This document shows, one piece after another, positions 1 through 27,677 of a stretch of 32,000 bases of DNA; position 1 is the stretch's first letter, and each line of letters begins with the position of its first letter. The position numbers were made by a program, and so were the translations under genes. The DNA is from Methylophaga frappieri (GTDB lineage: Bacteria > Pseudomonadota > Gammaproteobacteria > Nitrosococcales > Methylophagaceae): NCBI RefSeq assembly GCF_000260965.1, contig NC_017856.1, forward strand, positions 390,001 to 422,000, read 5' to 3'. The notes beneath the pieces were generated by a model that was not told where the DNA came from, made no database searches, and saw only the letters and a list, made by a program, of their open reading frames with translations.

Positions 1-218
1 TCGGCACACCGCTACTCACCGAGCAATGTCACACCAGTTTGGGTGATCTGCATTACATGATTTCACAAACGCCCCAAGTGTGGCTCGACCATCAACTTTA
101 TGAAATGCATGATGGTTTGTTGCTTGCCTGGGATGCAGTCGATGCCTTGTTTCCTGCACAATTAATTGACGACATGTTCAGTGCCTATACGAACCTTCTC
201 GAATGGTTAGCCGCTGAT
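1..218 (+). other. C-terminal part of a heterocyclization (Cy) domain
   Basis: SQTPQVWLDHQLYE...WDAVDALFP...DDMFSAYTNLL parallels the C-terminal ends of the two complete Cy domains downstream. Confidence 0.85.
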
Positions 219-3200
219 CGTCAGCATTGGCAACAAATACCGCCAGAATTAATGCCTGCTTATCAATTAACCACCCGCGAAGCAGTCAACCAAACCCAAG
301 CCCCCATAATCGACCGGGTGTTGCATCAAGGTGTGTTTGAACACGCCAAACGCTCAGCAGACAAGGTAGCCCTTATCTCAGACAATGCGTCTGTCACTTA
401 CGCTGCATTGGCCGATAAAGCCCTGCGTATCGCCCGTCTGTTACACGATAACGGTCTGCAATCCGGTGATCCCGTGGCAGTCACATTGCCAAGAGGCATT
501 GACCAGATTGCCGCTGTATTGGGTATTTTGGCCGCAGGCGGTTGTTATGTGCCTGTCGGTATTCATCAACCCGCTGCTCGGCAGGCCAAAATCCATCACA
601 CCGCTGGCATAAAACTAGTGTTAACGGCTTCCGATTATCTTGAGGTGGAGACCCTGGCCTCGGTCACGCGATTGGATGTGGCGCTAGCCCGTTCACTGTC
701 GCCTTTGGCTGAACCGGTTTCGGTCTCGCCGCAGCAGGCGGCGTATATCATCTTTACTTCCGGTTCGACCGGTGAGCCTAAAGGTGTGGAGATGGCCCAT
801 GCGGCTACCGCCAATACCATTGACCATTTAAATCAGCGTTATCAGGTGGGACAGCATAGTACAGGCCTTGCCATCTCGGCGCTCGATTTCGATTTGTCGG
901 TCTACGATATCTTTGGCTTGTTACAGGTCGGTGGCGCGCTGGTGTTGGTAGATGAGTCTCAACGGCGGGATGCAAATGCCTGGTTGAGTTTGATTCATCA
1001 ACATCAGGTCACGCTCTGGAATAGTGTGCCGGTGTTGTTGGATATGTTGTTGGTGGTCGCACAGAACGATAGCCGTCAATTGCCGTTTGAGCAGGTGATG
1101 TTGTCGGGCGATTGGATTGGTTTGGATTTACCGCCTCGCCTATTGGCCACGACCCAAACGATGCCGGCATTTATTGCGATGGGCGGTGCCACGGAAGCGG
1201 CGATTTGGTCGAATGTGTTTGAGGTGAATACGGCGATGGAAGATGGCCACTTGCCTTCGCAGTGGACGTCAATTCCCTATGGGAAGCCGTTAGCCAATCA
1301 GGCTTATCGCGTGGTCGATAGTTTGGGACGTGATTGTCCGGACTGGGTGCCGGGTGAGTTATGGATTGGTGGCCTCGGTTTGGCTAACGGCTATCGCGGT
1401 GATGCGACGCTGACGGCAGAGCGGTTTGTTGAGGTGGCGGGCAAGCGTTGGTATCGCACGGGTGACCGGGGCCGTTATTGGCCTGATGGCAATCTGGAGT
1501 TTTTAGGTCGGATTGACCATCAGGTGAAAGTACGTGGTCACCGGATTGAGTTAGGTGAAATCGATGCGGCGATGGCGACACTCCCCGAGATTGCCAGAGC
1601 GGTGGCGGTAACAGTAGGACAGCCGCCGGCATTAGCGGCCGCGTTTGTGGCAAAAGCCTCTAACTCGCTCGATACGGATGCCATTCGACAGGCGTTACAG
1701 CAAATCTTACCGGATTATATGGTACCGCCTACTTTGGTGCAGATGGCGGATTTACCGCTCAGTGCCAATGGCAAGCTCGATAGAAAACAGCTCGCCGCTC
1801 TGCTTGTGGAGCAGGTCGCAACCACCGAACACATCATCACGCCACCACAGACCACAGCAGAAAAAGTGGTCGCTGAACTGTGGCAGTCATTACTCGGGAT
1901 TGCGTCGGTTGGAAGAGAAAGTAATTTCTTTACTTTAGGTGGTGATAGTTTATTGGCCACACAGGTGGTGGCACAGTTAAGACAGCAAGGCTTGAGTGCT
2001 TCTCAGCCGTTACGTTTGTTGTTTGCCAAACCGGTGTTGATGGATTTCGCTGCTGAGTTAGCGGAAACCACGCAGGCGAAAACGGTAAAGGTGGTGGCCG
2101 AACCGCAGCAGCGTCATGAGCCGTTCCCGTTAACGGAAATCCAGCGCGCTTACTGGATGGGACAATCACCGGGGCTGCCGCTCAGTTGTGGTACGCATTA
2201 TCTGGTCGAACTCGATGGTGAGCAGGTCGATTTAGAACGCATTGAGCGTGCATGGCAGAAACTCGTTGAGCGTCATGAGATGATGCGTGCTGTCGTCGAT
2301 GAAAATGGTATGCAACGCATTTTGCAGCAGGTTTCTCCCGTCCGCATCAGCCGTCATCAATTGGATGAGCAAGACAGTGCAGAAACCGCGCAAGCCGTGT
2401 TACATGAATTGTGGCATCAACAATCACAGCAACAGCGTCAACAACCTCAGCAGGATGCTGCTGTTCCCTATCAGCTCCATGCGGTTTTTTATGGTAAACA
2501 TCGCTGCCGACTGGGCATTAATTTCAATTATTTGACGCTGGATGGTTTCAGTATCAAGTTACTGCTAGAACAATTGGCCGATCTGTATCAAAATCCAAGC
2601 CGCGATCTGCCTGAACTGGCATTATCATTCCGCGATTACGTTAATCAAGTTCATTATGATGCTGTTGCAATCGACAAAGCGGAGAAATACTGGCGCAATC
2701 GACTTCAGGATTTGCCATTAGCCCCGGAATTACCGCTTGCCGTTGATCCGGAAACTCTGTCACATGTCGAATTTAAACGCCGTGAAGCGAAACTTGATGC
2801 AACCCGCTGGCAGGCGTTGAAAGAAAAAGCAAGAGCCCACCAAATCACGCCGTCTGTATTACTTTTGGTTGCTTACAGCCAGATCCTTCGCCGCTGGAGT
2901 GGCGGTGGCAATCATACGCTCAACCTGACCCTATTTGATCGTCAACCTGTGCATGCAGATATTAATCAGATATTGGGTGATTTTACCTCGTTGGCACCGG
3001 TGGCTTTTTGCCATGAAAATGGTAATACCTTGATCGATCAGGCTCGTGCGACACAACAAGAAATCGCCAGTGCACTGGAGCATCGTGAAATCTCTTCTAT
3101 CTGGATTCAGCGCGAACGCTCACATCAGATGAGTTTGACCTCAGCGGCATTGCCCGTTGTGTTCACCAGTACGTTAGGGCTCGGCAATGGTTTATTCGAA

Positions 3201-6200
3201 AATCCACCGGCCGGTTTCCCGGAAATGGTCGCCGGCGGTTTGTCGGAAACACCGCAAGTCTGGCTTGATCATCAATTATACGAATATCGTGGTGAGCTCG
3301 TTTTATCGTGGGATGCTGTAGAGGACTTATTCCCTGCGGGTTTACTCGATGACATGTTCCAGTCTTACCAACAACTGCTAAATGAGCTTATTACGCAAGA
3401 CTGGACACAACCCTTTAATTTTTGCTTACCCACAAACCAAGCCGCCACCCGCGAAGCAGTCAACCAAACCCAAGCCCCCATAATCGACCGGGTGTTGCAT
3501 CAAGGTGTGTTTGAACACGCCAAACGCTCAGCAGACAAGGTAGCCCTTATCTCAGACAATGCGTCTGTCACTTACGCTGCATTGGCCGATAAAGCCCTGC
3601 GTATCGCCCGTCTGTTACACGATAACGGTCTGCAATCCGGTGATCCCGTGGCAGTCACATTGCCAAGAGGCATTGACCAGATTGCCGCTGTATTGGGTAT
3701 TTTGGCCGCAGGCGGTTGTTATGTGCCTGTCGGTATTCATCAACCCGCTGCTCGGCAGGCCAAAATCCATCACACCGCTGGCATAAAACTAGTGTTAACG
3801 GCTTCCGATTATCTTGAGGTGGAGACCCTGGCCTCGGTCACGCGATTGGATGTGGCGCTAGCCCGTTCACTGTCGCCTTTGGCTGAACCGGTTTCGGTCT
3901 CGCCGCAGCAGGCGGCGTATATCATCTTTACTTCCGGTTCGACCGGTGAGCCTAAAGGTGTGGAGATGGCCCATGCGGCTACCGCCAATACCATTGACCA
4001 TTTAAATCAGCGTTATCAGGTGGGACAGCATAGTACAGGCCTTGCCATCTCGGCGCTCGATTTCGATTTGTCGGTCTACGATATCTTTGGCTTGTTACAG
4101 GTCGGTGGCGCGCTGGTGTTGGTAGATGAGTCTCAACGGCGGGATGCAAATGCCTGGTTGAGTTTGATTCATCAACATCAGGTCACGCTCTGGAATAGTG
4201 TGCCGGTGTTGTTGGATATGTTGTTGGTGGTCGCACAGAACGATAGCCGTCAATTGCCGTTTGAGCAGGTGATGTTGTCGGGCGATTGGATTGGTTTGGA
4301 TTTACCGCCTCGCCTATTGGCCACGACCCAAACGATGCCGGCATTTATTGCGATGGGCGGTGCCACGGAAGCGGCGATTTGGTCGAATGTGTTTGAGGTG
4401 AATACGGCGATGGAAGATGGCCACTTGCCTTCGCAGTGGACGTCAATTCCCTATGGGAAGCCGTTAGCCAATCAGGCTTATCGCGTGGTCGATAGTTTGG
4501 GACGTGATTGTCCGGACTGGGTGCCGGGTGAGTTATGGATTGGTGGCCTCGGTTTGGCTAACGGCTATCGCGGTGATGCGACGCTGACGGCAGAGCGGTT
4601 TGTTGAGGTGGCGGGCAAGCGTTGGTATCGCACGGGTGACCGGGGCCGTTATTGGCCTGATGGCAATCTGGAGTTTTTAGGTCGGATTGACCATCAGGTG
4701 AAAGTACGTGGTCACCGGATTGAGTTAGGTGAAATCGATGCGGCGATGGCGACACTCCCCGAGATTGCCAGAGCGGTGGCGGTAACAGTAGGACAGCCGC
4801 CGGCATTAGCGGCCGCGTTTGTGGCAAAAGCCTCTAACTCGCTCGATACGGATGCCATTCGACAGGCGTTACAGCAAATCTTACCGGATTATATGGTACC
4901 GCCTACTTTGGTGCAGATGGCGGATTTACCGCTCAGTGCCAATGGCAAGCTCGATAGAAAACAGCTCGCCGCTCTGCTTGTGGAGCAGGTCGCAACCACC
5001 GAACACATCATCACGCCACCACAGACCACAGCAGAAAAAGTGGTCGCTGAACTGTGGCAGTCATTACTCGGGATTGCGTCGGTTGGAAGAGAAAGTAATT
5101 TCTTTACTTTAGGTGGTGATAGTTTATTGGCCACACAGGTGGTGGCACAGTTAAGACAGCAAGGCTTGAGTGCTTCTCAGCCGTTACGTTTGTTGTTTGC
5201 CAAACCGGTGTTGATGGATTTCGCTGCTGAGTTAGCGGAAACCACGCAGGCGAAAACGGTAAAGGTGGTGGCCGAACCGCAGCAGCGTCATGAGCCGTTC
5301 CCGTTAACGGAAATCCAGCGCGCTTACTGGATGGGACAATCACCGGGGCTGCCGCTCAGTTGTGGTACGCATTATCTGGTCGAACTCGATGGTGAGCAGG
5401 TCGATTTAGAACGCATTGAGCGTGCATGGCAGAAACTCGTTCAGCGCCATGAGATGCTGAGGGTCAGGATTAACAACCAAGGTCAGCAGCAAATTCTGTC
5501 TGTCGAGCAAACACCAGCTCTGCAGCTTGTTCAAGGTAAGGCTGCTGATCTCAATTCAGCGAGAGCACGTATTCACTCCTGGTGGCAACATTATTCAGAG
5601 CATGACCGTGAGACGTTATTTGCCTTAAATGCTGTGAGCTACCTGGATCAGGCTGGACAACAACGTTATCGACTCGGTTTATTGTTCAGCTACATGACCT
5701 TGGACGGCTTTAGTATCAAGCTGTTGTTAAACGAACTTGCGACGCTATACAGTCAGCCAGAATCGTCATGGCCGACATTGACATTGTCTTTCCGTGATTA
5801 TGTCAATCAAGTACAACCCGATCCTCAAGCATTAGAGCGTGCCGAGCAATACTGGCATCAACGGTTGCCAGAACTGCCTTCGGCTGCTGCCCTGCCCTTG
5901 GCGAAAGATCCGCTTAATGTGGGGTCGGTACAGTTTTCTCGTCGGGAAGCTCGATTGGAGAAATCACGTTGGGCAGCCTTGCGCCAGTCAGCACAAACTC
6001 ATGGTATTACACCATCAGTTGCTATTCTGGTTGCTTATGCGGAAATTTTGAGTCAGTGGAGTGGTGGCCATGCCCATACTTTGAATTTGACCTTATTTGA
6101 TCGGCAGCCAGTTCATCAGGATATCGATAAAATCGTCGGTGATTTCACTTCACTGGCACCGGTTTCCTACTATCCAGATCAACAACAAACCTTATTAATG

Positions 6201-8468
6201 CAAGCCCAGCAAGTACAAAAAACGCTGGCTGAAGTATTGGAGCATCGCGAAGTCTCTTCTGTTTGGGTGCAACGTGAACGCGCCAGAACAATGGGGTTGA
6301 CGGCAGCAGCGCTGCCTATTGTCTTTACCAGCACGCTAGGCATGTCTGATAGTTTATTTGATGAACTACCGGCAGACGGTTTTCCTGATTTGGCCGGTGG
6401 CGGTTTATCCGAAACACCGCAAGTCTGGCTTGATCATCAGATGTATGAGCATCGTGGCGAACTGCTGATTTCCTGGGATGCAGTTGATGAACTGTTTCCG
6501 TCAGGATTGGTGGATGACATGTTCACTGCCTTTATTGATCTGCTACAGCGCTTGGCAGATAACTGGCACGAGCCTTTGCCGGTGGCGTTACCTGCAAACC
6601 AAGCTGCCACCCGCGAAGCAGTCAACCAAACCCAAGCCCCCATAATCGACCGGGTGTTGCATCAAGGTGTGTTTGAACACGCCAAACGCTCAGCAGACAA
6701 GGTAGCCCTTATCTCAGACAATGCGTCTGTCACTTACGCTGCATTGGCCGATAAAGCCCTGCGTATCGCCCGTCTGTTACACGATAACGGTCTGCAATCC
6801 GGTGATCCCGTGGCAGTCACATTGCCAAGAGGCATTGACCAGATTGCCGCTGTATTGGGTATTTTGGCCGCAGGCGGTTGTTATGTGCCTGTCGGTATTC
6901 ATCAACCCGCTGCTCGGCAGGCCAAAATCCATCACACCGCTGGCATAAAACTAGTGTTAACGGCTTCCGATTATCTTGAGGTGGAGACCCTGGCCTCGGT
7001 CACGCGATTGGATGTGGCGCTAGCCCGTTCACTGTCGCCTTTGGCTGAACCGGTTTCGGTCTCGCCGCAGCAGGCGGCGTATATCATCTTTACTTCCGGT
7101 TCGACCGGTGAGCCTAAAGGTGTGGAGATGGCCCATGCGGCTACCGCCAATACCATTGACCATTTAAATCAGCGTTATCAGGTGGGACAGCATAGTACAG
7201 GCCTTGCCATCTCGGCGCTCGATTTCGATTTGTCGGTCTACGATATCTTTGGCTTGTTACAGGTCGGTGGCGCGCTGGTGTTGGTAGATGAGTCTCAACG
7301 GCGGGATGCAAATGCCTGGTTGAGTTTGATTCATCAACATCAGGTCACGCTCTGGAATAGTGTGCCGGTGTTGTTGGATATGTTGTTGGTGGTCGCACAG
7401 AACGATAGCCGTCAATTGCCGTTTGAGCAGGTGATGTTGTCGGGCGATTGGATTGGTTTGGATTTACCGCCTCGCCTATTGGCCACGACCCAAACGATGC
7501 CGGCATTTATTGCGATGGGCGGTGCCACGGAAGCGGCGATTTGGTCGAATGTGTTTGAGGTGAATACGGCGATGGAAGATGGCCACTTGCCTTCGCAGTG
7601 GACGTCAATTCCCTATGGGAAGCCGTTAGCCAATCAGGCTTATCGCGTGGTCGATAGTTTGGGACGTGATTGTCCGGACTGGGTGCCGGGTGAGTTATGG
7701 ATTGGTGGCCTCGGTTTGGCTAACGGCTATCGCGGTGATGCGACGCTGACGGCAGAGCGGTTTGTTGAGGTGGCGGGCAAGCGTTGGTATCGCACGGGTG
7801 ACCGGGGCCGTTATTGGCCTGATGGCAATCTGGAGTTTTTAGGTCGGATTGACCATCAGGTGAAAGTACGTGGTCACCGGATTGAGTTAGGTGAAATCGA
7901 TGCGGCGATGGCGACACTCCCCGAGATTGCCAGAGCGGTGGCGGTAACAGTAGGACAGCCGCCGGCATTAGCGGCCGCGTTTGTGGCAAAAGCCTCTAAC
8001 TCGCTCGATACGGATGCCATTCGACAGGCGTTACAGCAAATCTTACCGGATTATATGGTACCGCCTACTTTGGTGCAGATGGCGGATTTACCGCTCAGTG
8101 CCAATGGCAAGCTCGATAGAAAACAGCTCGCCGCTCTGCTTGTGGAGCAGGTGATTGAGCAACAAACATACGAAGCACCTAAAGACCAGCTCGAACAACA
8201 AATCGCCGATGTCTGGTGTGAGGTCTTGCAATGTTGGCAGATTTCTCGTCATGACGATTTTTTCCAAATCGGTGGCGACAGTCTCACAGCAACTCAACTT
8301 GTACAGCAATTACAAACACGTCGAGTCAGCCCAGAAGCAATTTCATTACTTACCCTGTTCGGTTCGCCAACCATAGCCGGACTCGCAGATGAAATACGCC
8401 ACCAATGGCAAGCCATTGGCATTCAAACGAATAATGATGAATTAATTTTTGAAGAAGGAACGTTATGA
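1..8468 (+). CDS. Non-ribosomal peptide synthetase, 5'-truncated by the window edge; visible architecture (Cy)-A-T-Cy-A-T-Cy-A-T
   Basis: The frame of the 39..8468 ORF stays open back to nt 3. The residues upstream of the TTG at 39 (GTPLLTEQCHTS) continue a Cy domain, so the true start lies upstream of the window. Cy motifs: FPLTEIQRAYWMGQ, GDFTS, VVFTST, SETPQVWLDHQ. A motifs: AYIIFTSGSTGEPKG, YRTGDRGRY, GRIDHQVKVRGHRIELGEI, NGKLDRK. Carrier motifs: FFTLGGDS (twice) and FFQIGGDS. Stop TGA at 8466-8468. Confidence 0.97.
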   Translation, partial: GTPLLTEQCHTSLGDLHYMISQTPQVWLDHQLYEMHDGLLLAWDAVDALFPAQLIDDMFSAYTNLLEWLAADRQHWQQIPPELMPAYQLTTREAVNQTQAPIIDRVLHQGVFEHAKRSADKVALISDNASVTYAALADKALRIARLLHDNGLQSGDPVAVTLPRGIDQIAAVLGILAAGGCYVPVGIHQPAARQAKIHHTAGIKLVLTASDYLEVETLASVTRLDVALARSLSPLAEPVSVSPQQAAYIIFTSGSTGEPKGVEMAHAATANTIDHLNQRYQVGQHSTGLAISALDFDLSVYDIFGLLQVGGALVLVDESQRRDANAWLSLIHQHQVTLWNSVPVLLDMLLVVAQNDSRQLPFEQVMLSGDWIGLDLPPRLLATTQTMPAFIAMGGATEAAIWSNVFEVNTAMEDGHLPSQWTSIPYGKPLANQAYRVVDSLGRDCPDWVPGELWIGGLGLANGYRGDATLTAERFVEVAGKRWYRTGDRGRYWPDGNLEFLGRIDHQVKVRGHRIELGEIDAAMATLPEIARAVAVTVGQPPALAAAFVAKASNSLDTDAIRQALQQILPDYMVPPTLVQMADLPLSANGKLDRKQLAALLVEQVATTEHIITPPQTTAEKVVAELWQSLLGIASVGRESNFFTLGGDSLLATQVVAQLRQQGLSASQPLRLLFAKPVLMDFAAELAETTQAKTVKVVAEPQQRHEPFPLTEIQRAYWMGQSPGLPLSCGTHYLVELDGEQVDLERIERAWQKLVERHEMMRAVVDENGMQRILQQVSPVRISRHQLDEQDSAETAQAVLHELWHQQSQQQRQQPQQDAAVPYQLHAVFYGKHRCRLGINFNYLTLDGFSIKLLLEQLADLYQNPSRDLPELALSFRDYVNQVHYDAVAIDKAEKYWRNRLQDLPLAPELPLAVDPETLSHVEFKRREAKLDATRWQALKEKARAHQITPSVLLLVAYSQILRRWSGGGNHTLNLTLFDRQPVHADINQILGDFTSLAPVAFCHENGNTLIDQARATQQEIASALEHREISSIWIQRERSHQMSLTSAALPVVFTSTLGLGNGLFENPPAGFPEMVAGGLSETPQVWLDHQLYEYRGELVLSWDAVEDLFPAGLLDDMFQSYQQLLNELITQDWTQPFNFCLPTNQAATREAVNQTQAPIIDRVLHQGVFEHAKRSADKVALISDNASVTYAALADKALRIARLLHDNGLQSGDPVAVTLPRGIDQIAAVLGILAAGGCYVPVGIHQPAARQAKIHHTAGIKLVLTASDYLEVETLASVTRLDVALARSLSPLAEPVSVSPQQAAYIIFTSGSTGEPKGVEMAHAATANTIDHLNQRYQVGQHSTGLAISALDFDLSVYDIFGLLQVGGALVLVDESQRRDANAWLSLIHQHQVTLWNSVPVLLDMLLVVAQNDSRQLPFEQVMLSGDWIGLDLPPRLLATTQTMPAFIAMGGATEAAIWSNVFEVNTAMEDGHLPSQWTSIPYGKPLANQAYRVVDSLGRDCPDWVPGELWIGGLGLANGYRGDATLTAERFVEVAGKRWYRTGDRGRYWPDGNLEFLGRIDHQVKVRGHRIELGEIDAAMATLPEIARAVAVTVGQPPALAAAFVAKASNSLDTDAIRQALQQILPDYMVPPTLVQMADLPLSANGKLDRKQLAALLVEQVATTEHIITPPQTTAEKVVAELWQSLLGIASVGRESNFFTLGGDSLLATQVVAQLRQQGLSASQPLRLLFAKPVLMDFAAELAETTQAKTVKVVAEPQQRHEPFPLTEIQRAYWMGQSPGLPLSCGTHYLVELDGEQVDLERIERAWQKLVQRHEMLRVRINNQGQQQILSVEQTPALQLVQGKAADLNSARARIHSWWQHYSEHDRETLFALNAVSYLDQAGQQRYRLGLLFSYMTLDGFSIKLLLNELATLYSQPESSWPTLTLSFRDYVNQVQPDPQALERAEQYWHQRLPELPSAAALPLAKDPLNVGSVQFSRREARLEKSRWAALRQSAQTHGITPSVAILVAYAEILSQWSGGHAHTLNLTLFDRQPVHQDIDKIVGDFTSLAPVSYYPDQQQTLLMQAQQVQKTLAEVLEHREVSSVWVQRERARTMGLTAAALPIVFTSTLGMSDSLFDELPADGFPDLAGGGLSETPQVWLDHQMYEHRGELLISWDAVDELFPSGLVDDMFTAFIDLLQRLADNWHEPLPVALPANQAATREAVNQTQAPIIDRVLHQGVFEHAKRSADKVALISDNASVTYAALADKALRIARLLHDNGLQSGDPVAVTLPRGIDQIAAVLGILAAGGCYVPVGIHQPAARQAKIHHTAGIKLVLTASDYLEVETLASVTRLDVALARSLSPLAEPVSVSPQQAAYIIFTSGSTGEPKGVEMAHAATANTIDHLNQRYQVGQHSTGLAISALDFDLSVYDIFGLLQVGGALVLVDESQRRDANAWLSLIHQHQVTLWNSVPVLLDMLLVVAQNDSRQLPFEQVMLSGDWIGLDLPPRLLATTQTMPAFIAMGGATEAAIWSNVFEVNTAMEDGHLPSQWTSIPYGKPLANQAYRVVDSLGRDCPDWVPGELWIGGLGLANGYRGDATLTAERFVEVAGKRWYRTGDRGRYWPDGNLEFLGRIDHQVKVRGHRIELGEIDAAMATLPEIARAVAVTVGQPPALAAAFVAKASNSLDTDAIRQALQQILPDYMVPPTLVQMADLPLSANGKLDRKQLAALLVEQVIEQQTYEAPKDQLEQQIADVWCEVLQCWQISRHDDFFQIGGDSLTATQLVQQLQTRRVSPEAISLLTLFGSPTIAGLADEIRHQWQAIGIQTNNDELIFEEGTL
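318..1794 (+). other. Adenylation domain 1 (Cys-type signature)
   Basis: A3 FTSGSTGEPKG, A4 LDFDLSVYDIF, A5 AMGGATEAAIWSN, A7 YRTGDRG, A8 GRIDHQVKVRGHRIELGEI, A10 NGKLDRK. The specificity positions, read by eye, give D-L-Y-N-M-S-M-I-W-K. Confidence 0.9.
1854..2060 (+). other. Thiolation (PCP) domain 1
   Basis: AEKVVAELWQSLLGI...NFFTLGGDSLLATQVV; phosphopantetheinyl Ser codon at 1947-1949. Confidence 0.9.
2118..3392 (+). other. Heterocyclization (Cy) domain with non-canonical NxxxxDxxS core
   Basis: FPLTEIQRAYWMGQ, RHEMMRAV, NYLTLDGFS (2526-2552) in place of DxxxxDxxS, LPLAPELPL, TPSVLLLVAYSQILRRWS, LNLTLFDR, GDFTS, VVFTST, SETPQVWLDHQ. Confidence 0.9.
3492..4968 (+). other. Adenylation domain 2 (identical to A1)
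   Basis: Lies within repeat copy 2; identical translation to A1. Confidence 0.9.
5028..5234 (+). other. Thiolation (PCP) domain 2 (identical to T1)
   Basis: Lies within repeat copy 2; Ser codon at 5121-5123. Confidence 0.9.
5292..6560 (+). other. Heterocyclization (Cy) domain with non-canonical SxxxxDxxS core
   Basis: FPLTEIQRAYWMGQ, RHEMLRVRI, SYMTLDGFS (5688-5714), LNLTLFDR, GDFTS, IVFTST, SETPQVWLDHQ. Confidence 0.9.
6607..8152 (+). repeat. Intragenic direct repeat, copy 3 (A domain only)
   Basis: Offset 3162 nt from copy 2. Identity ends after ...gagcaggt (8152 = 1816 in copy 1), then diverges into a different T domain. Confidence 0.95.
6654..8130 (+). other. Adenylation domain 3 (identical to A1 and A2)
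   Basis: Lies within repeat copy 3; identical translation. Confidence 0.9.
8190..8396 (+). other. Thiolation (PCP) domain 3 (unrelated in sequence to T1/T2)
   Basis: LEQQIADVWCEVL...DDFFQIGGDSLTATQLV; Ser codon at 8280-8282. Confidence 0.88.
8430..8465 (+). other. C-terminal docking tail of the first NRPS
   Basis: The terminal peptide NNDELIFEEGTL is acidic and ends in EEGxL. This resembles the short tails that partner with TubC-type N-terminal docking domains. Confidence 0.5.
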
Positions 8469-8623
8469 GTATCGCTACTATCGTCTCGGATTTTGAAGCG
8501 CTTGGCGTTTATCTCTGGGCTGAACACGATCAGCTGAAGTTTAAGGCCCCGGCTGGTGTGTTAAGTGATGCGCATAAAGAAAAGCTAAAACACCATAAAG
8601 ATGAACTTATCGCCTTTCTAGCC
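8465..8623 (+). other. TubC_N-type (beta-hairpin) N-terminal docking domain
   Basis: MSIATIVSDFEALGVYLWAEHDQLKFKAPAGVLSDAHKEKLKHHKDELIAFL fits the pattern GV.LW.e.d.L.f.AP.G.L...l...L..hK.eL...L recalled for TubC/EpoB-type docking domains. Confidence 0.65.
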
Positions 8624-11600
8624 GATCCTGTCATCGACGGTATTCAGCCAGATTTAGAAAATCGTTACAGCCCTTTTCCTTTGACAGATTTACAACTGGC
8701 GTATCTGGTTGGCCGGACCAATGCCATCGAATATGGTGGTGTTGGCTGTCATAGTTATATTGAACTGGATATGGTTGCTGTCGATTTAGAAAAGCTGCAA
8801 ACAGCATGGCACAAACTCATTTCTCGCCACGAGATGTTGCGGGCACGTATAACTCAAAATGGTTACCAACAGATTTTACGTGATGTTTCCTCTCCCCCAG
8901 TAATACACCATGATTTTCGGCAACAACCTGCTGAAACGATCGAAAACAAGATGTTGGCATTAAGGGAACGCCTGGCCCACCGATGCTATCAACCTGATCA
9001 ATGGCCGCAGTATGAAATGCATTTAAGTAGCTATGATGAGGGCGCTGTTCTGCATTTTTCTATTGATTTGCTCATTGCAGATTTTGCCAGTATTCAAATT
9101 CTGCTCGCAGAACTTGGTGAACTCTACAACCATCCCCAGCGCGACTTGCCGAAATTAAGTATTTCTTATCGCGATGTTGTCTTGGCCAGAAAAGCCATTC
9201 AGGACAATCCGAAAGCGCTCACGCGTTATGAAAAACATAAAGCCTATTGGCTAAAGCGCCTTGAAACCATGCCAATGCCACCAGAACTGCCTATGGCTCG
9301 GCAATCACGCCGAACAAGTGAAATTCAGCAAGCAACTGTTACATTTAATCGATTACATTTCGAACTACCAGCCGATCAATGGCAATCACTAAGTCAGCAA
9401 GCTACGACAAAAAAAATTACCCCGTCCAGTGTTGTCTTGACAGCGTTTACAGAAACCCTGTCCCGCTGGTCTCGACACCAGGAGTTTTGCCTTAATCTGA
9501 CCATGCTGAATCGCTCCACGGCACACCCTGATATTCGTGGCCTGGTAGGTGACTTTATTGAAGTAAATGTCCTCGGCGTAACCCCCAACCCTGAGCATAG
9601 CTTTGCAGAACGCGCTGTGTCCATCCAGCAACGCCTGTGGCAGGATTTGGAGCACACTGACTTTTCAGGTATCGAAGTGCTACGCGAAATGAGCCGGCAA
9701 CAAGGCAGTAATGTCATTGTGCCAATTGTTTACACCAGTACAGTGGGTCTAAGCGGCGATCAATTAGATGCCAACGAATTTATGCATAATGCCAAACTCC
9801 GTTATGGCATTACCCAGACCCCTCAGGTATGGCTAGACTGCCAAGTTACCGAACGTAACGAGCAGTTATTAGTCGACTGGGATATCCGTAGTGATATTTT
9901 CAAAAGCGGAGTCATTGAGCAGGCTCATGGTGTTTTTTGCAAACTTCTGCAAGACCTGGCTAGTGATGCTGCTATCTGGCAATCAACACAGCCAATTTCA
10001 TTGCCAGAAGCCATGCAACACATTCGTGAAGAGACCAATAATACTGACGGCCGATTACCTGCAGAATTTCTCCATACGGGTTTTTGTCGCCAGGCTTTAA
10101 CCCGTCCTGATGCCGTTGCTGTTATCAGTGGTGATCGTCAAATTACCTATCATGATCTGGCCCGACAGGCTCTGACACTGCGGAGTTTCATGACCGACCA
10201 TGTCAATACCGGCGATCGGGTAGCCATTGTCATGGATAAAGGCGAAGACCAAATTGCTGCTGTATTGGCAGTACTGCTTGCGAATGCCACTTATGTACCG
10301 ATTGAGGGTGCGCAGCCTGTTGCGCGACGCAACACGATTCTTTCAGATGCCAATATTCAGGTTGTGCTCACCGATAACAGTCGCCTTGATTCTAATTGGC
10401 CAGCAAATACCACGGTTATTATTGTAGATAAGATTGACGCCTTGCCTGATAGCGAAACAACACGACAGATTTTGAATAATACCCTTGTAGATCATCAAGA
10501 TACATTTCGTAAAAACACAAACCGTATTGGTTACATTATTTACACCTCAGGTACAACGGGACGCCCCAAAGGGGTGATGATGTCACACCGAGCGGCTCTG
10601 AATACCGTCGCAGACATCAATGATCGGTTTAATATCAGCGAGATAGACAATGTATTAGGCTTGGTCAGTTTTGCTTTTGACCTGTCAATCTGGGATATAT
10701 TTGGCACCCTTGGTGCTGGCGCAACGCTCGTTCTGCCTGACGCGGATAAGCGTGCTGATCCTGCGCACTGGGCTCAGGTCATGTCATCTCATGCCGTGAC
10801 GGTATGGAACTCTGTCCCGGCACAATTGCAAATGCTAACAACGCAATTGGAATGGCAATCTGACGCTAATCTGAATCCATTACGACTGGCTATGTTGTCA
10901 GGAGACTGGATTCCTATATCTTTGCCGGATGCAGCGCGCAAGCACTTACCGCAACTGCAGGTTGTCAGTCTGGGCGGCCCAACTGAAACCGCGATTTGGT
11001 GTGTTAGCCATCTGATTGGTGAAGTACCCGACAATGCCTACAGTATCCCCTATGGTAAACCCCTGACAAATCACCAGATTCATATTCTTAACACACGACT
11101 GGAGCCTTGCCCTGATTGGGTTACCGGTGAAATGTATATTGGTGGTGCAGGTTTGGCGGCAGGTTACGCTGGTGACTCAGAGCAAACCAAGGCGCGCTTT
11201 ATCTATCATCCAGACACGGGCCAATGTTTATACCGATCAGGTGACCTCGGGCGTTATCGCCCAGATGGCATCATAGAAATTCAAGGACGTGACGATGGCC
11301 AAGTCAAAATTCATGGTCAACGTATTGAGCTTGGCGAAGTAGAAGCGGTCATTTGCAGCCATGAGGGTGTTCGTAGTGCTGCGGTCGTCTGTATCGGCTC
11401 CCCGGCACTGTTAGCGGCAGCAGTTGTACCCGATGAAACATCACCACTGCAGAATTCAAGTCTGGTAAACGAATTAAATCACTTTTTAACCGAGCGCCTG
11501 CCCGGTTATATGATTCCAGCTAATTTAATGATAATGCCGTCATTACCGTTGAGTAGCAATGGCAAGCTGGATCGAAAAACATTGCAAAAAACCTTATCAG

Positions 11601-13024
11601 AAAATAAGAACCATCAGGCAGATTTTGAAGCGCCTCTTGAGACACCGTTAGAGCAAAATGTCGCTCGAATTTGGCGTGAGTTACTAAACATCGAAACGCT
11701 GTCACGTCATGATGATTTTTTCAGTATCGGTGGTTCCAGCCTGACGGCTATCAATCTGCTGAGCGCTTTCCTCGCCGAAGGTTATCCAGCAGATATTGAT
11801 CTGATCTTTAATAATCCAACGTTCAGTGCCATGGTGTTTGCGCTGGAACAATCCAATGCCGCAAAAACTGAATGGTTAGATAGTATTGACCTGTCCAAAA
11901 TGGCGAGTCATGCAATGGCTGGTCTGAAAGATGCTCAGCCTTACGAGGCAACATCATCCATTAAAACTATCTTATTAACCGGTGCGAGTGGCTATCTTGG
12001 CAGTTATTTACTGAACCGCTTATTACGCGATACCGATTATCACCTTTATTGTTTACTACGTTGTGATGACCCGGAACATGGCATTGAACGTCTAATTCAT
12101 TCTGCAGCAGAAAAAGGCTTGAATATTGAACTCAATACCTCACGCCTTACTATTCTGCCTGGCGAGCTATCAGAACCAAAATTCGGCCTGAGTGATACAG
12201 CGTATCAGCATCTTGCTGAAAACGTTGATGTAGTAATCCATAATGCCTCGATTATTAACTTGATGGATCCCCTTTCCGGACTATATCCAACCAATGTTGA
12301 GGGGGTCAGCCATATTTTATCGCTGGCAAGTACAACGAAAATCAAGCCGATTCACTACATTTCCACCATTGGTGTTCATCATGCCTTACCAGAAGATACT
12401 GCACAGCCGGTATTAGAGCACACACCGGTCATGCACTGGCGACCCGTTACGCTGACTTATGAGCAGTCAAAAATCATGGCGGAAACCTTGTTTGGCTATG
12501 CACGTGAACACGGCATGCCCGTTAACATCCTGCGTCCGGGTACGATTACCTGGGATACCGGCGAAAAACCGTTTATTAATGATGATGCCTTCTTGAAGTT
12601 TTATCGGGCGTGTCTTGCCATCAAGTCCTATCCCGCTTCATCACTTGCCGTCAACATTGTTCCTGTAGATTATGTGGCGGATTGTATTGTTGCCATTACA
12701 CTGAGTAAAACCGGCAAAAGCGAGAATTTTCACCTGGTTTCTGAACAAAGCACACCTGTTGAAACGGTATATCAATGGTGTAATGAGCTTGGCTGTTCGA
12801 TCATGGCTAACAGTTTCAAGGACTGGAAAAACGCGTTGGATGATAACTTTATTCTGGGTTTCGTCAATCTGTATTTCGGCGATGACATGGATAATGGCGG
12901 GCATCATCAATACAGCACAGAAAACTTGCAGCAAGTTACTGCCAGCCATGGTATTGAGAGCTTTAGCGTTACCAAGGGTTACCTGAAATCATTAACAGAT
13001 CAATTTCACAATGCTGATGCGTGA
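8465..13024 (+). CDS. Terminal NRPS: docking domain-Cy-A-T-R (thioester reductase)
   Basis: The ATG overlaps the upstream stop (ATGA at 8465-8468). Cy motifs: FPLTDLQLAYLVGR, RHEMLRARI, canonical DLLIADFAS (9065-9091), LNLTMLNR, GDFIE, IVYTSTVG, TQTPQVWLDCQ. A motifs: YIIYTSGTTGRPKG, FAFDLSIWDIF, SLGGPTETAIWC, YRSGDLGRY, GRDDGQVKIHGQRIELGEVE, SNGKLDRK. T motif: FFSIGGSSL. R motifs: LLTGASGYLGSYLL and YEQSK. Confidence 0.96.
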   Translation: MSIATIVSDFEALGVYLWAEHDQLKFKAPAGVLSDAHKEKLKHHKDELIAFLADPVIDGIQPDLENRYSPFPLTDLQLAYLVGRTNAIEYGGVGCHSYIELDMVAVDLEKLQTAWHKLISRHEMLRARITQNGYQQILRDVSSPPVIHHDFRQQPAETIENKMLALRERLAHRCYQPDQWPQYEMHLSSYDEGAVLHFSIDLLIADFASIQILLAELGELYNHPQRDLPKLSISYRDVVLARKAIQDNPKALTRYEKHKAYWLKRLETMPMPPELPMARQSRRTSEIQQATVTFNRLHFELPADQWQSLSQQATTKKITPSSVVLTAFTETLSRWSRHQEFCLNLTMLNRSTAHPDIRGLVGDFIEVNVLGVTPNPEHSFAERAVSIQQRLWQDLEHTDFSGIEVLREMSRQQGSNVIVPIVYTSTVGLSGDQLDANEFMHNAKLRYGITQTPQVWLDCQVTERNEQLLVDWDIRSDIFKSGVIEQAHGVFCKLLQDLASDAAIWQSTQPISLPEAMQHIREETNNTDGRLPAEFLHTGFCRQALTRPDAVAVISGDRQITYHDLARQALTLRSFMTDHVNTGDRVAIVMDKGEDQIAAVLAVLLANATYVPIEGAQPVARRNTILSDANIQVVLTDNSRLDSNWPANTTVIIVDKIDALPDSETTRQILNNTLVDHQDTFRKNTNRIGYIIYTSGTTGRPKGVMMSHRAALNTVADINDRFNISEIDNVLGLVSFAFDLSIWDIFGTLGAGATLVLPDADKRADPAHWAQVMSSHAVTVWNSVPAQLQMLTTQLEWQSDANLNPLRLAMLSGDWIPISLPDAARKHLPQLQVVSLGGPTETAIWCVSHLIGEVPDNAYSIPYGKPLTNHQIHILNTRLEPCPDWVTGEMYIGGAGLAAGYAGDSEQTKARFIYHPDTGQCLYRSGDLGRYRPDGIIEIQGRDDGQVKIHGQRIELGEVEAVICSHEGVRSAAVVCIGSPALLAAAVVPDETSPLQNSSLVNELNHFLTERLPGYMIPANLMIMPSLPLSSNGKLDRKTLQKTLSENKNHQADFEAPLETPLEQNVARIWRELLNIETLSRHDDFFSIGGSSLTAINLLSAFLAEGYPADIDLIFNNPTFSAMVFALEQSNAAKTEWLDSIDLSKMASHAMAGLKDAQPYEATSSIKTILLTGASGYLGSYLLNRLLRDTDYHLYCLLRCDDPEHGIERLIHSAAEKGLNIELNTSRLTILPGELSEPKFGLSDTAYQHLAENVDVVIHNASIINLMDPLSGLYPTNVEGVSHILSLASTTKIKPIHYISTIGVHHALPEDTAQPVLEHTPVMHWRPVTLTYEQSKIMAETLFGYAREHGMPVNILRPGTITWDTGEKPFINDDAFLKFYRACLAIKSYPASSLAVNIVPVDYVADCIVAITLSKTGKSENFHLVSEQSTPVETVYQWCNELGCSIMANSFKDWKNALDDNFILGFVNLYFGDDMDNGGHHQYSTENLQQVTASHGIESFSVTKGYLKSLTDQFHNADA
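8666..9965 (+). other. Heterocyclization (Cy) domain, canonical DxxxxDxxS
   Basis: See the motifs listed for the terminal NRPS CDS. Confidence 0.9.
10067..11584 (+). other. Adenylation domain 4 (Cys-like but distinct signature)
   Basis: Specificity positions read by eye give D-L-W-N-M-S-L-I-W-K. There is no insertion between A8 and A9, so no embedded methyltransferase. Confidence 0.85.
11648..11848 (+). other. Thiolation (PCP) domain 4
   Basis: LEQNVARIWRELL...DDFFSIGGSSLTAINLL; Ser codon at 11738-11740. Confidence 0.88.
11963..13021 (+). other. Terminal thioester reductase (SDR-type R) domain
   Basis: NAD(P)-binding TGASGYLG and the catalytic YEQSK (YxxxK). About 350 aa located after the last T domain. 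Confidence 0.88.
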
Positions 13025-13080: not shown

Positions 13081-13896
13081 ATGTTTACTGAATCTGTCGC
13101 GTTGCGACCTGCGATCCAGTCTGTTGCCGAGAAGTGGTTTCGCATTTATCAGGCTCGACCCGGTGCTAGCCAGCGTATTATTTTGCTGCCACATGCTGGT
13201 GGCTCTGCCAGTTTCTTCAGGCATTGGAGCACCGCCTTTCCAGATTCCATAGAAGTGGTTTCAGTTCAGTATCCTGGCCGGGAAGCGCGTATTAATGATG
13301 CTTTGATTGATTCCATGCCCGAGCTGGTAGCCCAGTTAAGTGAAGGCTTGGAAGAAGTACTGGACAAACCTTATGTGCTTTTCGGTCACAGTATGGGTGG
13401 GGCCGTCGCTTACGAATTGTATCTGGCACTGCTGCGTCAAAAATTACCCTTACCAACGCATTTAGTGATTTCTGCTATTGAAGCCCCAACGCGCCGTCAT
13501 GTTGGCGATTTACACAAGCAAAGTGATAAAGCCTTGATGACTGAGTTAAAAAAACTTGATGGTTCCCAAGTCAATCTGGCGGACTACCCGGAACTGGCAG
13601 AAATTGTATTGCCATTAATGCGTAACGATTATCAATTGATAGAGACCTATCAACCTGTGCTGCCAACAACGCCGCTTAACTGCCCGATTACTGTCATGAC
13701 TGGTGATTCCGATACAGAGTTAAATCCAGGCGATGCAGATGCCTGGCAGGCAGAGACAACAGCCAACTTCAGACTACTCAGTTTTAAAGGCGGTCATTTT
13801 TATCTAAGGCCAGAGCAACAAGCGGTTGTTCGCGCCTTGACCAAAATTTGTCATCAGACACAAGGCGCTGGTTCACGTCAGCTTTATCTGCCCTGA
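13081..13896 (+). CDS. Type II (editing) thioesterase
   Basis: 271 aa. LLPHAGGSASFF, nucleophile elbow GHSMGG, C-terminal GGHFYL. GAGGA RBS about 10 nt upstream. Confidence 0.88.
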   Translation: MFTESVALRPAIQSVAEKWFRIYQARPGASQRIILLPHAGGSASFFRHWSTAFPDSIEVVSVQYPGREARINDALIDSMPELVAQLSEGLEEVLDKPYVLFGHSMGGAVAYELYLALLRQKLPLPTHLVISAIEAPTRRHVGDLHKQSDKALMTELKKLDGSQVNLADYPELAEIVLPLMRNDYQLIETYQPVLPTTPLNCPITVMTGDSDTELNPGDADAWQAETTANFRLLSFKGGHFYLRPEQQAVVRALTKICHQTQGAGSRQLYLP

Positions 13897-13997
13897 TGAT
13901 CCATTTGAGAGCATTATTTTACCGATCTGGGTAGCGCCGTATTCAGATTTAACGGATGTTAGTAGGTTTTGATTGGTTGATTCTTTAGGAGACAAGC

Positions 13998-14957
13998 ATG
14001 CGTTTATCCAAGGCCATATTGCTATCCGTGATGCCCTTGTGGTTTAGTCTCTCCGCGCATAGTGCCGACTACCCGTTGACCATTACCGATGATCGGGGCA
14101 AACAGGTGACCTTTAACGCCCAGCCAGAGTCGATTGCCTCTATCTCCGCATTTGGGGCTGATCTGTTGGCAGCACTGGGAAAACAGGCAACCGGTATGTC
14201 AACGCTGAATCATCAGCAGTCAGCTTTTCTGGGGGATACGATTAACGATATGGTTGATCTGGGGGAAATCCATGAAACCAATATGGAGTTACTCACCGAA
14301 CTTAATCCGGATCTGACCATTGGTATTCGTACCTATACCGAGCCATTTGAAAAAAAATTTGAAGAAATAGGCAAGTTTCTAGCTTTTGATCTGGTGACCT
14401 ATGCTGATTCGGTTGAAAGCGTCGAGGCTGTCAGCGCTGCACTCGGCGAAGCGGATAAAGGCAAACAACTGAATGCCGAGTTTGCTGACAGTTTGAAAGC
14501 CCATCAAGCGAAAGCGCCTGGTCGTCCCAGTGTGGTTTTTTTATGGCATTGGGCCGATGTACCTTATGGCTTTTATAATCATCATTTAACCATGGAAATC
14601 GTCTCTGCTTTACAGGCACATAACGCTATCGGCGACAGTCCACAACCCGATGTTCAGCCACTGGATTCCGCACCAGTTTCTATGGAAACCCTATTGCAGC
14701 TTGATCCGGACATTATCGTCTCCTTCAAAGGTGATGCCGGTCCAATCCAGAATCACCCTGTCTGGCATCGGTTAAGTGCGGTTAAAAATGGTCGTGCTTA
14801 TCGTGTCGGTGATCAATATGTCATGCCACACGGCCCCATTGCCCGGGATATGATTTTGCGTGAGCTGGCTTATCTGTTCTATCCGGATCACTTTCCAGAA
14901 CCGGCTGATATCCCTGCTGCTGCCCGTGCAACCGCAATGACTTTTACCGAGAATTAA
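13998..14957 (+). CDS. Periplasmic siderophore/iron-chelate substrate-binding protein (Peripla_BP_2, FecB/FhuD-like)
   Basis: Signal peptide MRLSKAILLSVMPLWFSLSAHSA. About 300-aa mature protein with the typical ...ESIASIS..GADLLAALG... N-lobe. AGGAG RBS. Immediately followed by FecCD permease genes. Confidence 0.82.
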   Translation: MRLSKAILLSVMPLWFSLSAHSADYPLTITDDRGKQVTFNAQPESIASISAFGADLLAALGKQATGMSTLNHQQSAFLGDTINDMVDLGEIHETNMELLTELNPDLTIGIRTYTEPFEKKFEEIGKFLAFDLVTYADSVESVEAVSAALGEADKGKQLNAEFADSLKAHQAKAPGRPSVVFLWHWADVPYGFYNHHLTMEIVSALQAHNAIGDSPQPDVQPLDSAPVSMETLLQLDPDIIVSFKGDAGPIQNHPVWHRLSAVKNGRAYRVGDQYVMPHGPIARDMILRELAYLFYPDHFPEPADIPAAARATAMTFTEN

Positions 14958-14981
14958 TCAAAGTCGATCCTAACGCTCATC

Positions 14982-15989
14982 ATGGCCGTGCCATCTGCTC
15001 CTGCTGATACCCCTTTTCTGACCTTGCTGCCAGTTGTTCTGGTGGCCGTTTTGGTCATTTTCTTATCCGGGCTGGGTGCATTGCTGCTCGGCGATTTTGA
15101 TCTGGACTTCGTAACCCTGATGCAAATTTTGTCAGTCCGCAGTCATTCAACTCTGGATTTTGTTGTCTGGGAGTTGCGCTTTCCGCGTTACATTGTTGCC
15201 ATTCTTGCCGGTTCGGCATTGGCCATGGCGGGCACAATTGTCCAATCCATCACACGTAATCCGCTAGGTTCACCCAGTTTGATGGGGGTGACCTCTGGTG
15301 CCGCATTCGCGATTGTCATCAGTTTTGTCATTTTTACCTTTGATACCTCAAGTCGACTGGTATTCGGCACACTCGGCGGCATGCTGGCGGCCTCTTTAAC
15401 TTTTGCACTGGCCTGGAAAACACAGTTAAACCCGATTAATTTAACGTTAGCCGGCATGAGCATTTCCCTATTCTTTATGGCTGCTATCACGGTGATGCTG
15501 GTTTCCGCTGATGCCGATGCGAGAGGTATTTATTATTGGCTTACTGGCAGTCTGGCAAACCTGACATGGCAACATGTTCAGCTGTTATACCCGTACGTGA
15601 TTGCCGGTTTAATTATTGGAGTTGGTTTTGCCCGTCCGCTCAATCTGTTAATGCTTGATGAACAAGTTGCGCATTCGCTGGGCCTGGCAATACAGTGGTG
15701 GCGGCTGGCATTGGGTATCGTTGCTGTCGTCCTGACCGCGGCAACTGTCGCTGTTGCTGGGCCAATCAGTTTTGTTGGTTTAATCGCCCCGCATCTGTCT
15801 CGTTTTGCCTTGGGTATGCCTGCCGCGAATAATCATCGTTTTGTCTTACCGCTGTCGGCGTTGATTGGCGCTGCGCTGGTCAGTAGTGCCGATTTACTGG
15901 CCAAATTTCAGGAAGTGCCTGTTGGCATACTTTGTATTCTGATTGGCGGCCCGTTATTTGTTGTGCTGATTCGGCGGCAACCTCAGTGA
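14982..15989 (+). CDS. FecCD-family iron-chelate ABC permease (first subunit)
   Basis: 335 aa and polytopic. Family-typical LRFPRYIVAILAGSALAMAGTIVQSITRNPL and GPISFVGLIAPH segments. Confidence 0.9.
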   Translation: MAVPSAPADTPFLTLLPVVLVAVLVIFLSGLGALLLGDFDLDFVTLMQILSVRSHSTLDFVVWELRFPRYIVAILAGSALAMAGTIVQSITRNPLGSPSLMGVTSGAAFAIVISFVIFTFDTSSRLVFGTLGGMLAASLTFALAWKTQLNPINLTLAGMSISLFFMAAITVMLVSADADARGIYYWLTGSLANLTWQHVQLLYPYVIAGLIIGVGFARPLNLLMLDEQVAHSLGLAIQWWRLALGIVAVVLTAATVAVAGPISFVGLIAPHLSRFALGMPAANNHRFVLPLSALIGAALVSSADLLAKFQEVPVGILCILIGGPLFVVLIRRQPQ

Positions 15990-17880: not shown

Positions 17881-17906
17881 CCCGGTCATCACAGGTAAGA
17901 CAAGTC

Positions 17907-18782: not shown

Positions 18783-18797
18783 GGACAGAAGACGCGC

Positions 18798-22442: not shown

Positions 22443-22488
22443 CGTGATAAAGACCAATTAACTTAACCCCAAAATCAGGAATAGTAAT

Positions 22489-22719
22489 GTGAGTGAGACA
22501 GCGCCCCTTAATAAACTGGAACTCGTTGACTATATTCGAACACTAGCCCCTTTTATTGAGCACATTGATGCACAGGATAATCTACTGGAAAGCGGGCTGG
22601 ATTCAATGCATATCCTGCAGTTGGTAAATTACTGCCGCGCCAAAGGCAGTAAAGTCACCTTTACTCAATTGATTGTCTCGCCCACGCTGGCCGACTGGCA
22701 AACCCTCATCTGCCAGTAA
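22489..22719 (+). CDS. Free-standing carrier protein, aryl-carrier (EntB/VibB C-terminal ArCP)-like
   Basis: 76 aa with a GTG start; CAGGA lies 9 nt upstream. DNLLESGLDSMHILQLVNY...VSPTLADWQTLI parallels my recollection of EntB ArCP (DNLIDYGLDSVRMMAL...NPTIDAWWKLL). Ser of GLDS is the likely Ppant site. Confidence 0.72.
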   Translation: MSETAPLNKLELVDYIRTLAPFIEHIDAQDNLLESGLDSMHILQLVNYCRAKGSKVTFTQLIVSPTLADWQTLICQ

Positions 22720-22773
22720 CAACGCCTTTCTTTTTCAGACTGACATCATTCACTTCAATTGACAGGCACAGCT

Positions 22774-26428: not shown

Positions 26429-26437
26429 GTAACTTGT

Positions 26438-27667: not shown

Positions 27668-27677
27668 GGATCTGCCA

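Follow-up and report, generated by a model that had tools for sequence, protein, structure and literature searches.

The question raised by this locus is how three long blocks inside one non-ribosomal peptide synthetase (NRPS) gene of Methylophaga frappieri strain JAM7 can be identical in every nucleotide when the segments that separate them are saturated with changes at silent sites. The window investigated is the whole stretch of 32,000 nt (assembly GCF_000260965.1, contig NC_017856.1, positions 390,001 to 422,000 of the forward strand), and all coordinates below are counted from its first nucleotide, on the plus strand unless otherwise stated. The gene in question, referred to here as NRPS1, occupies positions 3 to 8468 with its 3' 8.4 kb; all three copies share one reading frame, which is open from nucleotide 3 to the stop codon at 8466-8468 and extends upstream beyond the window. 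In translation this frame matches residues 460-3280 of an M. frappieri JAM7 protein of 3280 aa with 100% identity; the protein is annotated as 'iron aquisition yersiniabactin synthesis enzyme (Irp2)'. Comparison of the blocks with each other and with homologous genes indicates that intragenic gene conversion, and with it concerted evolution of an old three-module NRPS, is the most probable cause, and not a recent triplication.

The overall architecture of NRPS1 is an aryl carrier protein (ArCP) domain followed by three modules of heterocyclisation (Cy), adenylation (A) and thiolation (T) domains, ArCP-(Cy-A-T)x3, and the full protein begins with the aryl-carrier-like segment and the first Cy domain; what lies 5' of the window, namely the start of the gene and its upstream genes, is deduced from the full-length M. 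frappieri protein and from relatives. Comparison with a repeat finder and base by base showed that positions 271-2267 and 3445-5441 are identical (0 mismatches across 1997 nt) and that positions 271-1816, 3445-4990, and 6607-8152 are mutually identical (1546 nt, 0 mismatches). The start-to-start spacing is 3174 nt (1058 codons) and then 3162 nt (1054 codons), both in frame, and ungapped identity falls to about 20-40% per 60-nt window directly outside the blocks. At the protein level 515 aa are identical in copies 1, 2, and 3 and 666 aa in copies 1 and 2. These blocks had been noticed in a first-pass annotation made from the letters alone, the coordinates and offsets of which proved to be exact in the pairwise nucleotide comparison and the protein lengths of which (about 515 and 665 aa) were borne out; the identical shadow open reading frames that it also listed across the copies are a trivial consequence of nucleotide identity. 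Its statement that no synonymous difference exists agrees with the 205 four-fold codons of the tract, none of which differs in any copy; chance plays no part, and identity at silent sites means that protein-level selection is not the cause.

Mapping of core motifs places the left end of each copy in the Cy-A linker, 40 residues ahead of motif A1 (VTYAAL), and the three-way tract spans the whole A domain (motifs A1-A10), ending 11 residues past motif A10 (NGKLDR). Copy 1 of this tract (271-1816) thereby comprises the end of the Cy1-A linker and all of A1, copy 2 (3445-4990) carries A2, and copy 3 (6607-8152) carries A3. The two-way extension, present at 1817-2267 and 4991-5441, adds the T domain (T1 or T2, with the carrier motif GGDSL, at 1938 in copy 1), the linker between T and Cy, and 48 residues at the start of the following Cy domain (Cy2 or Cy3, from FPLTEIQ, at 2124 in copy 1). 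The unit had been described as a whole A or A-T unit triplicated, which holds for the A domain, found three times; the segment A-T-(start of Cy) is found only twice. The unique parts of the gene are the Cy2 core (2268-3444), the Cy3 core (5442-6606), and, at 8153-8468, T3 (GGDSL at 8271) with a C-terminal tail, after which comes the next synthetase, NRPS2, with its TubC_N-type docking domain. T3 lies outside the homogenised part and has 36% protein identity to T1.

Regarding domain identity, Pfam detects three AMP-binding, two Condensation, and three PP-binding domains in the window part of NRPS1, and the motif GGDSL is present in T1, T2, and T3. The closest solved structures to the Cy domains are those of Irp2/HMWP2, EpoB, BmdB, and the PchE Cy domain (E 7e-87 to 1.5e-54), and a search of the NRPS condensation-type domains for the motif HHxxxDG found none. 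At the DxxxxD site Cy1 (DLLVAD) and Cy4 of NRPS2 (DLLIAD) are canonical, while Cy2 has NYLTLD (about 2514-2531) and Cy3 has SYMTLD (about 5673-5690); family-wide the first residue at this site of internal Cy domains is D, N, or S. The specificity code of the repeated A domain, DLYNMSMIWK, is of the cysteine type when set against the canonical cysteine code DLYNLSLIWK; it was extracted by alignment to a GrsA reference sequence (which reproduced the GrsA code DAWTIAAICK), with positions 330 and 331 read by eye past a gap. The earlier reading of the repeated unit as a cysteine-specific Cy-A-T module agrees with these domain matches, the A code, and the Cy structures.

The segments between the identical blocks show a very different degree of divergence. 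Cy2 and Cy3 have 55% protein identity and 58% DNA identity, and only 22 of the 69 four-fold sites at conserved residues match, which amounts to saturation; Cy1 is 35% identical to Cy2 and Cy3. Zero and saturated divergence thus stand side by side in one repeat unit, a combination that recent duplication of the modules could not yield, and part of each module must have been overwritten. A protein search revealed a family of homologs of about 3250 aa at 56-61% identity in Oceanospirillum, Pseudoalteromonas, Burkholderia, Janthinobacterium, Pseudomonas matsuisoli, Aquaspirillum, Aeromonas/Photobacterium, and the Gilliamella group, and relatives with two and four modules also exist. Identity between the A domains of one protein ranges from 63-72% in Pseudoalteromonas and 65-70% in Aeromonas/Photobacterium through 81-86% in Burkholderia and P. 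matsuisoli and 93-97% in Janthinobacterium to 99-100% in Aquaspirillum, the Gilliamella group, Marichromatium (two modules), and Methylophaga; Burkholderia taken singly spans 83-85%. The A domains A1-3 of Methylophaga are 100% identical to each other, as against about 60-68% to the A domains of any other organism.

In a neighbor-joining tree of 13 proteins the A domains group by organism and the Cy domains by module position. For the unique Cy cores, with 100 bootstraps, the Cy1 clade is recovered in 100/100 replicates, a Cy2 clade of Methylophaga, Oceanospirillum, and Aeromonas/Photobacterium in 81/100, and the matching Cy3 clade in 90/100, and Methylophaga Cy2 and Cy3 appear as sisters in 0/100. 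Similarly, Methylophaga Cy2 has 66% identity to Oceanospirillum Cy2 compared with 55% to its own Cy3. As judged from these sequence comparisons, the three-module architecture is old and the flanking Cy cores keep their positional orthology. The triplication proposed in the first-pass annotation is accordingly not upheld as a recent duplication of modules, since Cy1, Cy2, and Cy3 each have positional orthologues and Cy2 and Cy3 are never sisters.

The same pattern recurs in other lineages. On the chromosome of Aquaspirillum sp. LM1 modules 1 and 2 share about 2040 nt with 7 mismatches and modules 2 and 3 share 1593 nt with 4 mismatches, so that these tracts are 99.6-99.7% identical with a few copy-specific single-nucleotide polymorphisms (SNPs) resolved. 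In the corresponding tracts of a Gilliamella-type contig there is 1 mismatch in 1900 nt and none in 1536 nt (99.9-100%). Marichromatium likewise has near-identical A(-T) tracts, with ends similar to those in the window. Relative to motifs A3 and A10 and the Cy N-terminus, the tract ends in Aquaspirillum, the Gilliamella-type contig, and the window lie within about 100 nt of one another. The outer limits of the tract are unchanged in Janthinobacterium, where module 1 contains divergent patches, the homogenised stretch of Burkholderia is limited to motifs A3-A10, and in Oceanospirillum homogenisation is limited to modules 2 and 3. Between organisms the identity of A domains is only about 60%, and homogenisation must therefore have taken place separately in each lineage. 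Three full-length Gilliamella proteins have 19 variable residues in the tract, about 8 of which are strain-specific and common to all three copies, and a few occur in one or two copies only, as if partly spread. Strain-specific changes present in all copies are the signature expected of homogenisation that continued after the strains diverged. Among the causes offered in the first-pass annotation, gene conversion is the one favored by the grouping of A domains by organism and Cy domains by position, by the recurrence of the tract in unrelated bacteria that were assembled independently, and by the shared changes in Gilliamella.

Regarding the mechanism, non-reciprocal homologous recombination would take place repeatedly between the gene's internal direct repeats and so keep the blocks identical. 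Such conversion would be tolerated where the copies are equivalent, that is, in the loading of cysteine and in its presentation in cis to the next Cy domain, and selection would remove conversion at the position-specific parts, the cores of Cy1 to Cy3, each of which would act on a different growing chain. T3 would be spared as the carrier that hands over in trans to NRPS2 through a docking pair. Selection of this kind would explain why the tract stops sharply in the linker between Cy and A, past motif A10 in module 3, and some 50 residues into the next Cy domain in modules 1 and 2. We infer a RecA-type recombination mechanism, a selective reason for the tract boundaries and, for Methylophaga, conversion that is ongoing rather than a single recent event. 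Several points weigh against gene conversion as outlined here. The cluster is present in one Methylophaga genome only, and a single recent conversion is equally compatible with the data; an assembly from the 454 era could have merged copies differing by up to about 1-2% into one consensus; and the Burkholderia tract starts later, near motif A3, so that the boundaries are not fixed.

Of the alternatives, an assembly artefact survives best, although it is an unlikely one. It would imply that copies which are merely similar, or present in another number, were represented by one repeat consensus placed at three positions during finishing. The JAM7 genome was produced with what we take to be a pyrosequencing-era (454) method. 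It reportedly appeared in the same 2012 announcement as the genome of the sister strain JAM1, the assembly of which contained discrepancies that PacBio re-sequencing was needed to correct. Short-read drafts of relatives also fail at the A repeats, and the draft of Psychromonas hadalis shows one module. However, three modules in about 3250 aa are conserved across many independent genomes including single-contig chromosomes, the copies are flanked, in the order expected, by unique Cy2, Cy3, and T3 segments that each have their positional orthologue, and the Aquaspirillum LM1 sequence resolves copy-specific SNPs and is still 99.6-99.7% identical, which shows that near-zero divergence is natural. 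An artefact would at most turn exactly 0 differences into very few, and a wrong copy number or order is unlikely. The possibility of a mis-assembly raised in the first-pass annotation is therefore unlikely to extend to the copy number, three modules being conserved in the family, while the exact zero could indeed be a consensus effect.

Drafts of Gilliamella, Enterovibrio, Vibrio lentus, Ruminobacter, Marichromatium gracile, and several actinomycetes break at the A repeats, with single Cy segments on contigs of 1.4-2.1 kb or genes that end inside an A domain at a contig end. Identical A repeats are probably widespread among the relatives. Short-read assembly systematically breaks or collapses genes of this family, with the consequence that genome mining miscounts modules and mispredicts products.

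A second alternative concerns the origin of the A domain itself. The GC content at third codon positions (GC3) is 0.57 in the tract, 0.45 in the Cy2 and Cy3 cores, 0.43 in A4 (the A domain of NRPS2), and 0.36 in T3; windows of 300 codons within the tract have a GC3 of 0.57-0.61, which exceeds all 74 windows of the remainder of the cluster (mean 0.457, maximum 0.547). With an overall GC content of 54.7%, the tract could be a GC-richer cysteine A domain that was acquired horizontally and copied into three modules in one recent replacement. This is very improbable. In the A tree the Methylophaga A domain adjoins that of Oceanospirillum, as do its Cy domains; no closer donor is found among 5.8 billion proteins, where the next best protein to NRPS1 has 61% identity; and spread of a foreign domain to three sites would need gene conversion anyway.

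The composition of other lineages bears on the same point. GC3 of A1-3 minus that of the Cy domains was compared across eight lineages, and in those that are homogenised the difference is +0.128 (Methylophaga), +0.075 (Gilliamella), +0.072 (Burkholderia), +0.054 (Janthinobacterium), and +0.004 (Aquaspirillum), as against -0.002 (Oceanospirillum), +0.004 (Pseudoalteromonas), and -0.012 (Aeromonas/Photobacterium) in those classed as non-homogenised. An excess of 5-13 points is thus found in 4/5 homogenised lineages and in 0/3 non-homogenised ones, and the control difference, A4 against Cy4, ranges from -0.040 to +0.021 in every lineage. The Spearman rho, from a small sample (n = 8 lineages) with unpolarised substitutions, is 0.71 (p = 0.05), and the pattern accords with GC-biased gene conversion. 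The presence of the excess in three further homogenised lineages and in none of the three non-homogenised ones agrees more readily with a bias linked to the process than with four separate imports, a GC-richer donor being the alternative cause of the excess. If the enrichment holds with polarised substitutions, these genes would provide replicated within-gene controls for the debated GC-biased gene conversion of bacteria.

Recent tandem duplication, in which a Cy-A-T module would have been doubled twice and its Cy parts would then have diverged or been replaced, could account for the regular in-frame spacing of 3174 and 3162 nt and has a parallel in the two-, three-, and four-module homologs, which imply that module number changed during the evolution of the wider family, but it is the least credible of the alternatives and can practically be dismissed given that the Cy2 and Cy3 cores are saturated at silent sites and have orthologues in Oceanospirillum and Aeromonas/Photobacterium (66% identity compared with 52-55% to the paralogue; bootstrap 81-90) and that Cy1 is merely 35% identical to both.

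Gene conversion between perfect direct repeats leads to the question of module number. Both offsets are multiples of 3, and the arithmetic of in-frame module deletion or duplication in the first-pass annotation is correct: crossovers between copies 1 and 2, 2 and 3, or 1 and 3 would remove 3174, 3162, or 6336 nt in frame and leave the architectures Cy1-A-T-Cy3-A-T3, Cy1-A-T-Cy2-A-T3, and Cy1-A-T3, respectively. Variants with one module more or less (n+1 or n-1) were sought in eight 90%-identity protein clusters of relatives and none was found, which suggests selection on module number. Apparently short members of these clusters are fragments at contig ends or split genes, such as that of Pseudoalteromonas DL2-H6 (2276 + 998 aa). 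Perfect in-frame repeats predict low-frequency n-1 and n-2 deletion alleles in any culture, and heterogeneity of module number in Methylophaga populations is a reasonable prediction.

A possible case of module loss is P. hadalis (NZ_ATUO01000039.1; L001 6525-10004), in which a one-module NRPS1 of the architecture ArCP-Cy1-A-T3 lies 3' of the salicylate gene. A genome scan with the N-terminus of NRPS2 had P. hadalis as its sole match, and the NRPS2 of this organism is the closest relative, with 70% identity over the first 500 residues. The single Cy domain of P. hadalis has 65.5% identity to Methylophaga Cy1 compared with 33% to Cy2 and Cy3, and the tail of its NRPS1 has 55.6% identity to T3 compared with 35% to T1. 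On this scaffold the NRPS1 frame is interrupted by stops at codons 92 and 621, and NRPS2 is frameshifted at its start. This gene is ambiguous: the cluster may be decaying and have truly lost two modules (n-2), or identical repeats may have been collapsed from short reads, as an assembler walking from Cy1 through an identical A domain to T3 would give the same picture. Among the 8000 best word-sharing candidates there was neither a close relative of the P. hadalis gene nor a separate fragment of the Cy2 or Cy3 type, an absence that is weak evidence. It is a tentative suggestion that conversion in the tracts is GC-biased and that module number is switchable by recombination, with P. hadalis as a fixed n-2 product.

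Concerted evolution is already known for NRPS and polyketide synthase (PKS) genes, and NRPS1 is an unusually clean case. Medema et al. (2014; PMC4256081) described loading domains that branch by cluster and chain-handling domains that keep positional orthology, for example the acyltransferase (AT) compared with the ketosynthase (KS) domains of the rapamycin family and the A domains of daptomycin and calcium-dependent antibiotic (CDA) synthetases, and explained this by internal recombination and gene conversion with near-neutral consequences for the product, while single crossovers can change module architecture. The A and Cy domains of NRPS1 follow the same pattern. This gene differs from those systems in that identity is absolute at the nucleotide level over 1.5-2 kb, in a salicylate-capped poly-thiazoline NRPS, and in that the same tract, with similar ends, was homogenised independently in several distant lineages. 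Extreme internal repetition is also known from the mycolactone PKS of Mycobacterium ulcerans and the syringopeptin NRPS (PMC4256081). These resemble NRPS1 as megasynthase genes with near-identical repeated domain-coding segments; they are thought to be young serial module duplications, whereas the M. frappieri modules are old and each is homogenised in part. Recombination between the mycolactone PKS repeats can delete modules.

Regarding the units of exchange, Baunach et al. (2021; PMC8097286) found that diversifying recombination of NRPS genes uses Acore-centered units that preserve the C-A linker and the Asub subdomain. The recombination in NRPS1 is likewise inside an NRPS gene and centered on the A domain, but most of the Cy-A linker belongs to the tract, as does the A domain in full with its Asub, and in modules 1 and 2 the T domain and the beginning of the following Cy domain are carried along as well. 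The interchangeable parts would then be the whole A domain and, for a hand-over in cis, the T domain plus some 50 residues at the start of the Cy domain that follows, and the non-interchangeable parts would be the Cy cores and the last T domain, which docks in trans; this bears on the choice of cut sites for the engineering of heterocyclising modules.

NRPS1 also resembles the yersiniabactin synthetase HMWP2 (Irp2) and PchE/PchF of pyochelin synthesis in its N-terminal aryl carrier, cysteine-type A code, salicylate gene (in relatives), TonB receptor, and ABC import. HMWP2 has the architecture ArCP-Cy-A-T-Cy-T, in which one A domain serves several carriers, and a mixed PKS/NRPS partner, HMWP1. 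Unlike HMWP2, NRPS1 of M. frappieri has three A and three T domains in three complete modules, and in place of the thioesterase release of the HMWP2/HMWP1 system its partner is of the type docking-Cy-A-T-reductase, with no PKS in the window. The GenBank name Irp2 is therefore a misnomer and the protein is not an Irp2 orthologue, as both the architecture and the partner proteins differ from those of HMWP2.

The partner, NRPS2 (8465-13024), consists according to Pfam of a TubC_N docking domain, Cy4, A4, a T domain, and a thioester reductase. A4 has the cysteine-like code DLWNMSLIWK, in which positions 330 and 331 were again taken by eye across a gap, and is only 39% identical to A1-3, outside the conversion. 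Domain scans of the rest of the cluster (13081-29588) revealed a type II thioesterase, a FecBCD-type ABC importer, an ABC-2-type exporter, a TonB-dependent siderophore receptor, a conserved protein of unknown function, and two saccharopine-dehydrogenase-like oxidoreductases, and no PKS domain was found in Pfam scans of the fourteen open reading frames of at least 150 aa in the window. In the relatives for which DNA was fetched the gene upstream of NRPS1 always encodes a salicyl-AMP ligase and a chorismate-binding salicylate synthase, either fused or split. From its gene content the locus is a cluster for a salicylate-capped poly-thiazoline siderophore, and the predicted product is a salicyl-capped chain with four cysteine-derived rings that would be released as an aldehyde or alcohol. 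The product of this cluster family appears to be uncharacterised: a literature search for a described product in Gilliamella gave nothing specific, and no paper describing this ArCP-(Cy-A-T)x3 NRPS family was found. No second Methylophaga with the cluster was found, and a metagenome scan with the Cy2 core gave only a relative of 39% identity. Horizontal acquisition of the cluster is suggested by this restriction to one Methylophaga together with the distance to the next best protein (only 61%).

Similar to the coelibactin and sorangibactin clusters, the window has two saccharopine-dehydrogenase-like genes (26546-29588); those clusters have methyltransferase domains and thioesterase release, whereas that of M. 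frappieri has no methyltransferase and a terminal reductase (Gao et al. 2023; PMC10127202). The two genes (26546-27667 and 27678-29588) are adjacent and conserved as a pair in the Aquaspirillum and Gilliamella-type loci, and the second encodes a protein of 636 aa with a weak L-2-amino-thiazoline-4-carboxylate-hydrolase-like C-terminus. SrbE, which is related to this oxidoreductase pair, is essential for sorangibactin biosynthesis, where its role is not known (PMC10127202). Positions 22759-24168 encode a 469-aa protein without a Pfam or NCBIfam match that has a homolog in the Aquaspirillum cluster (29% identity, E 5e-70); its motif H-S-Y-C-D-G (HAYCDA in Aquaspirillum) recalls the HxxxD motif of condensation and acyltransferase enzymes, and it may be an unrecognised tailoring enzyme of the cluster family.

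Regarding regulation and non-coding features, the window has no tRNA genes and no Rfam matches, promoter and terminator scans of it were uninformative, and the Escherichia coli Fur-box consensus has no match in the window within 3 mismatches, the siderophore context notwithstanding. The sole regulator seen is an AraC-type gene (29643-30569) in divergent orientation. An unusually long membrane protein of 1214 aa with weak matches to ABC-2-type permeases is encoded at 18798-22442, 3' of an ABC ATPase gene, and presumably serves the cluster as its exporter.

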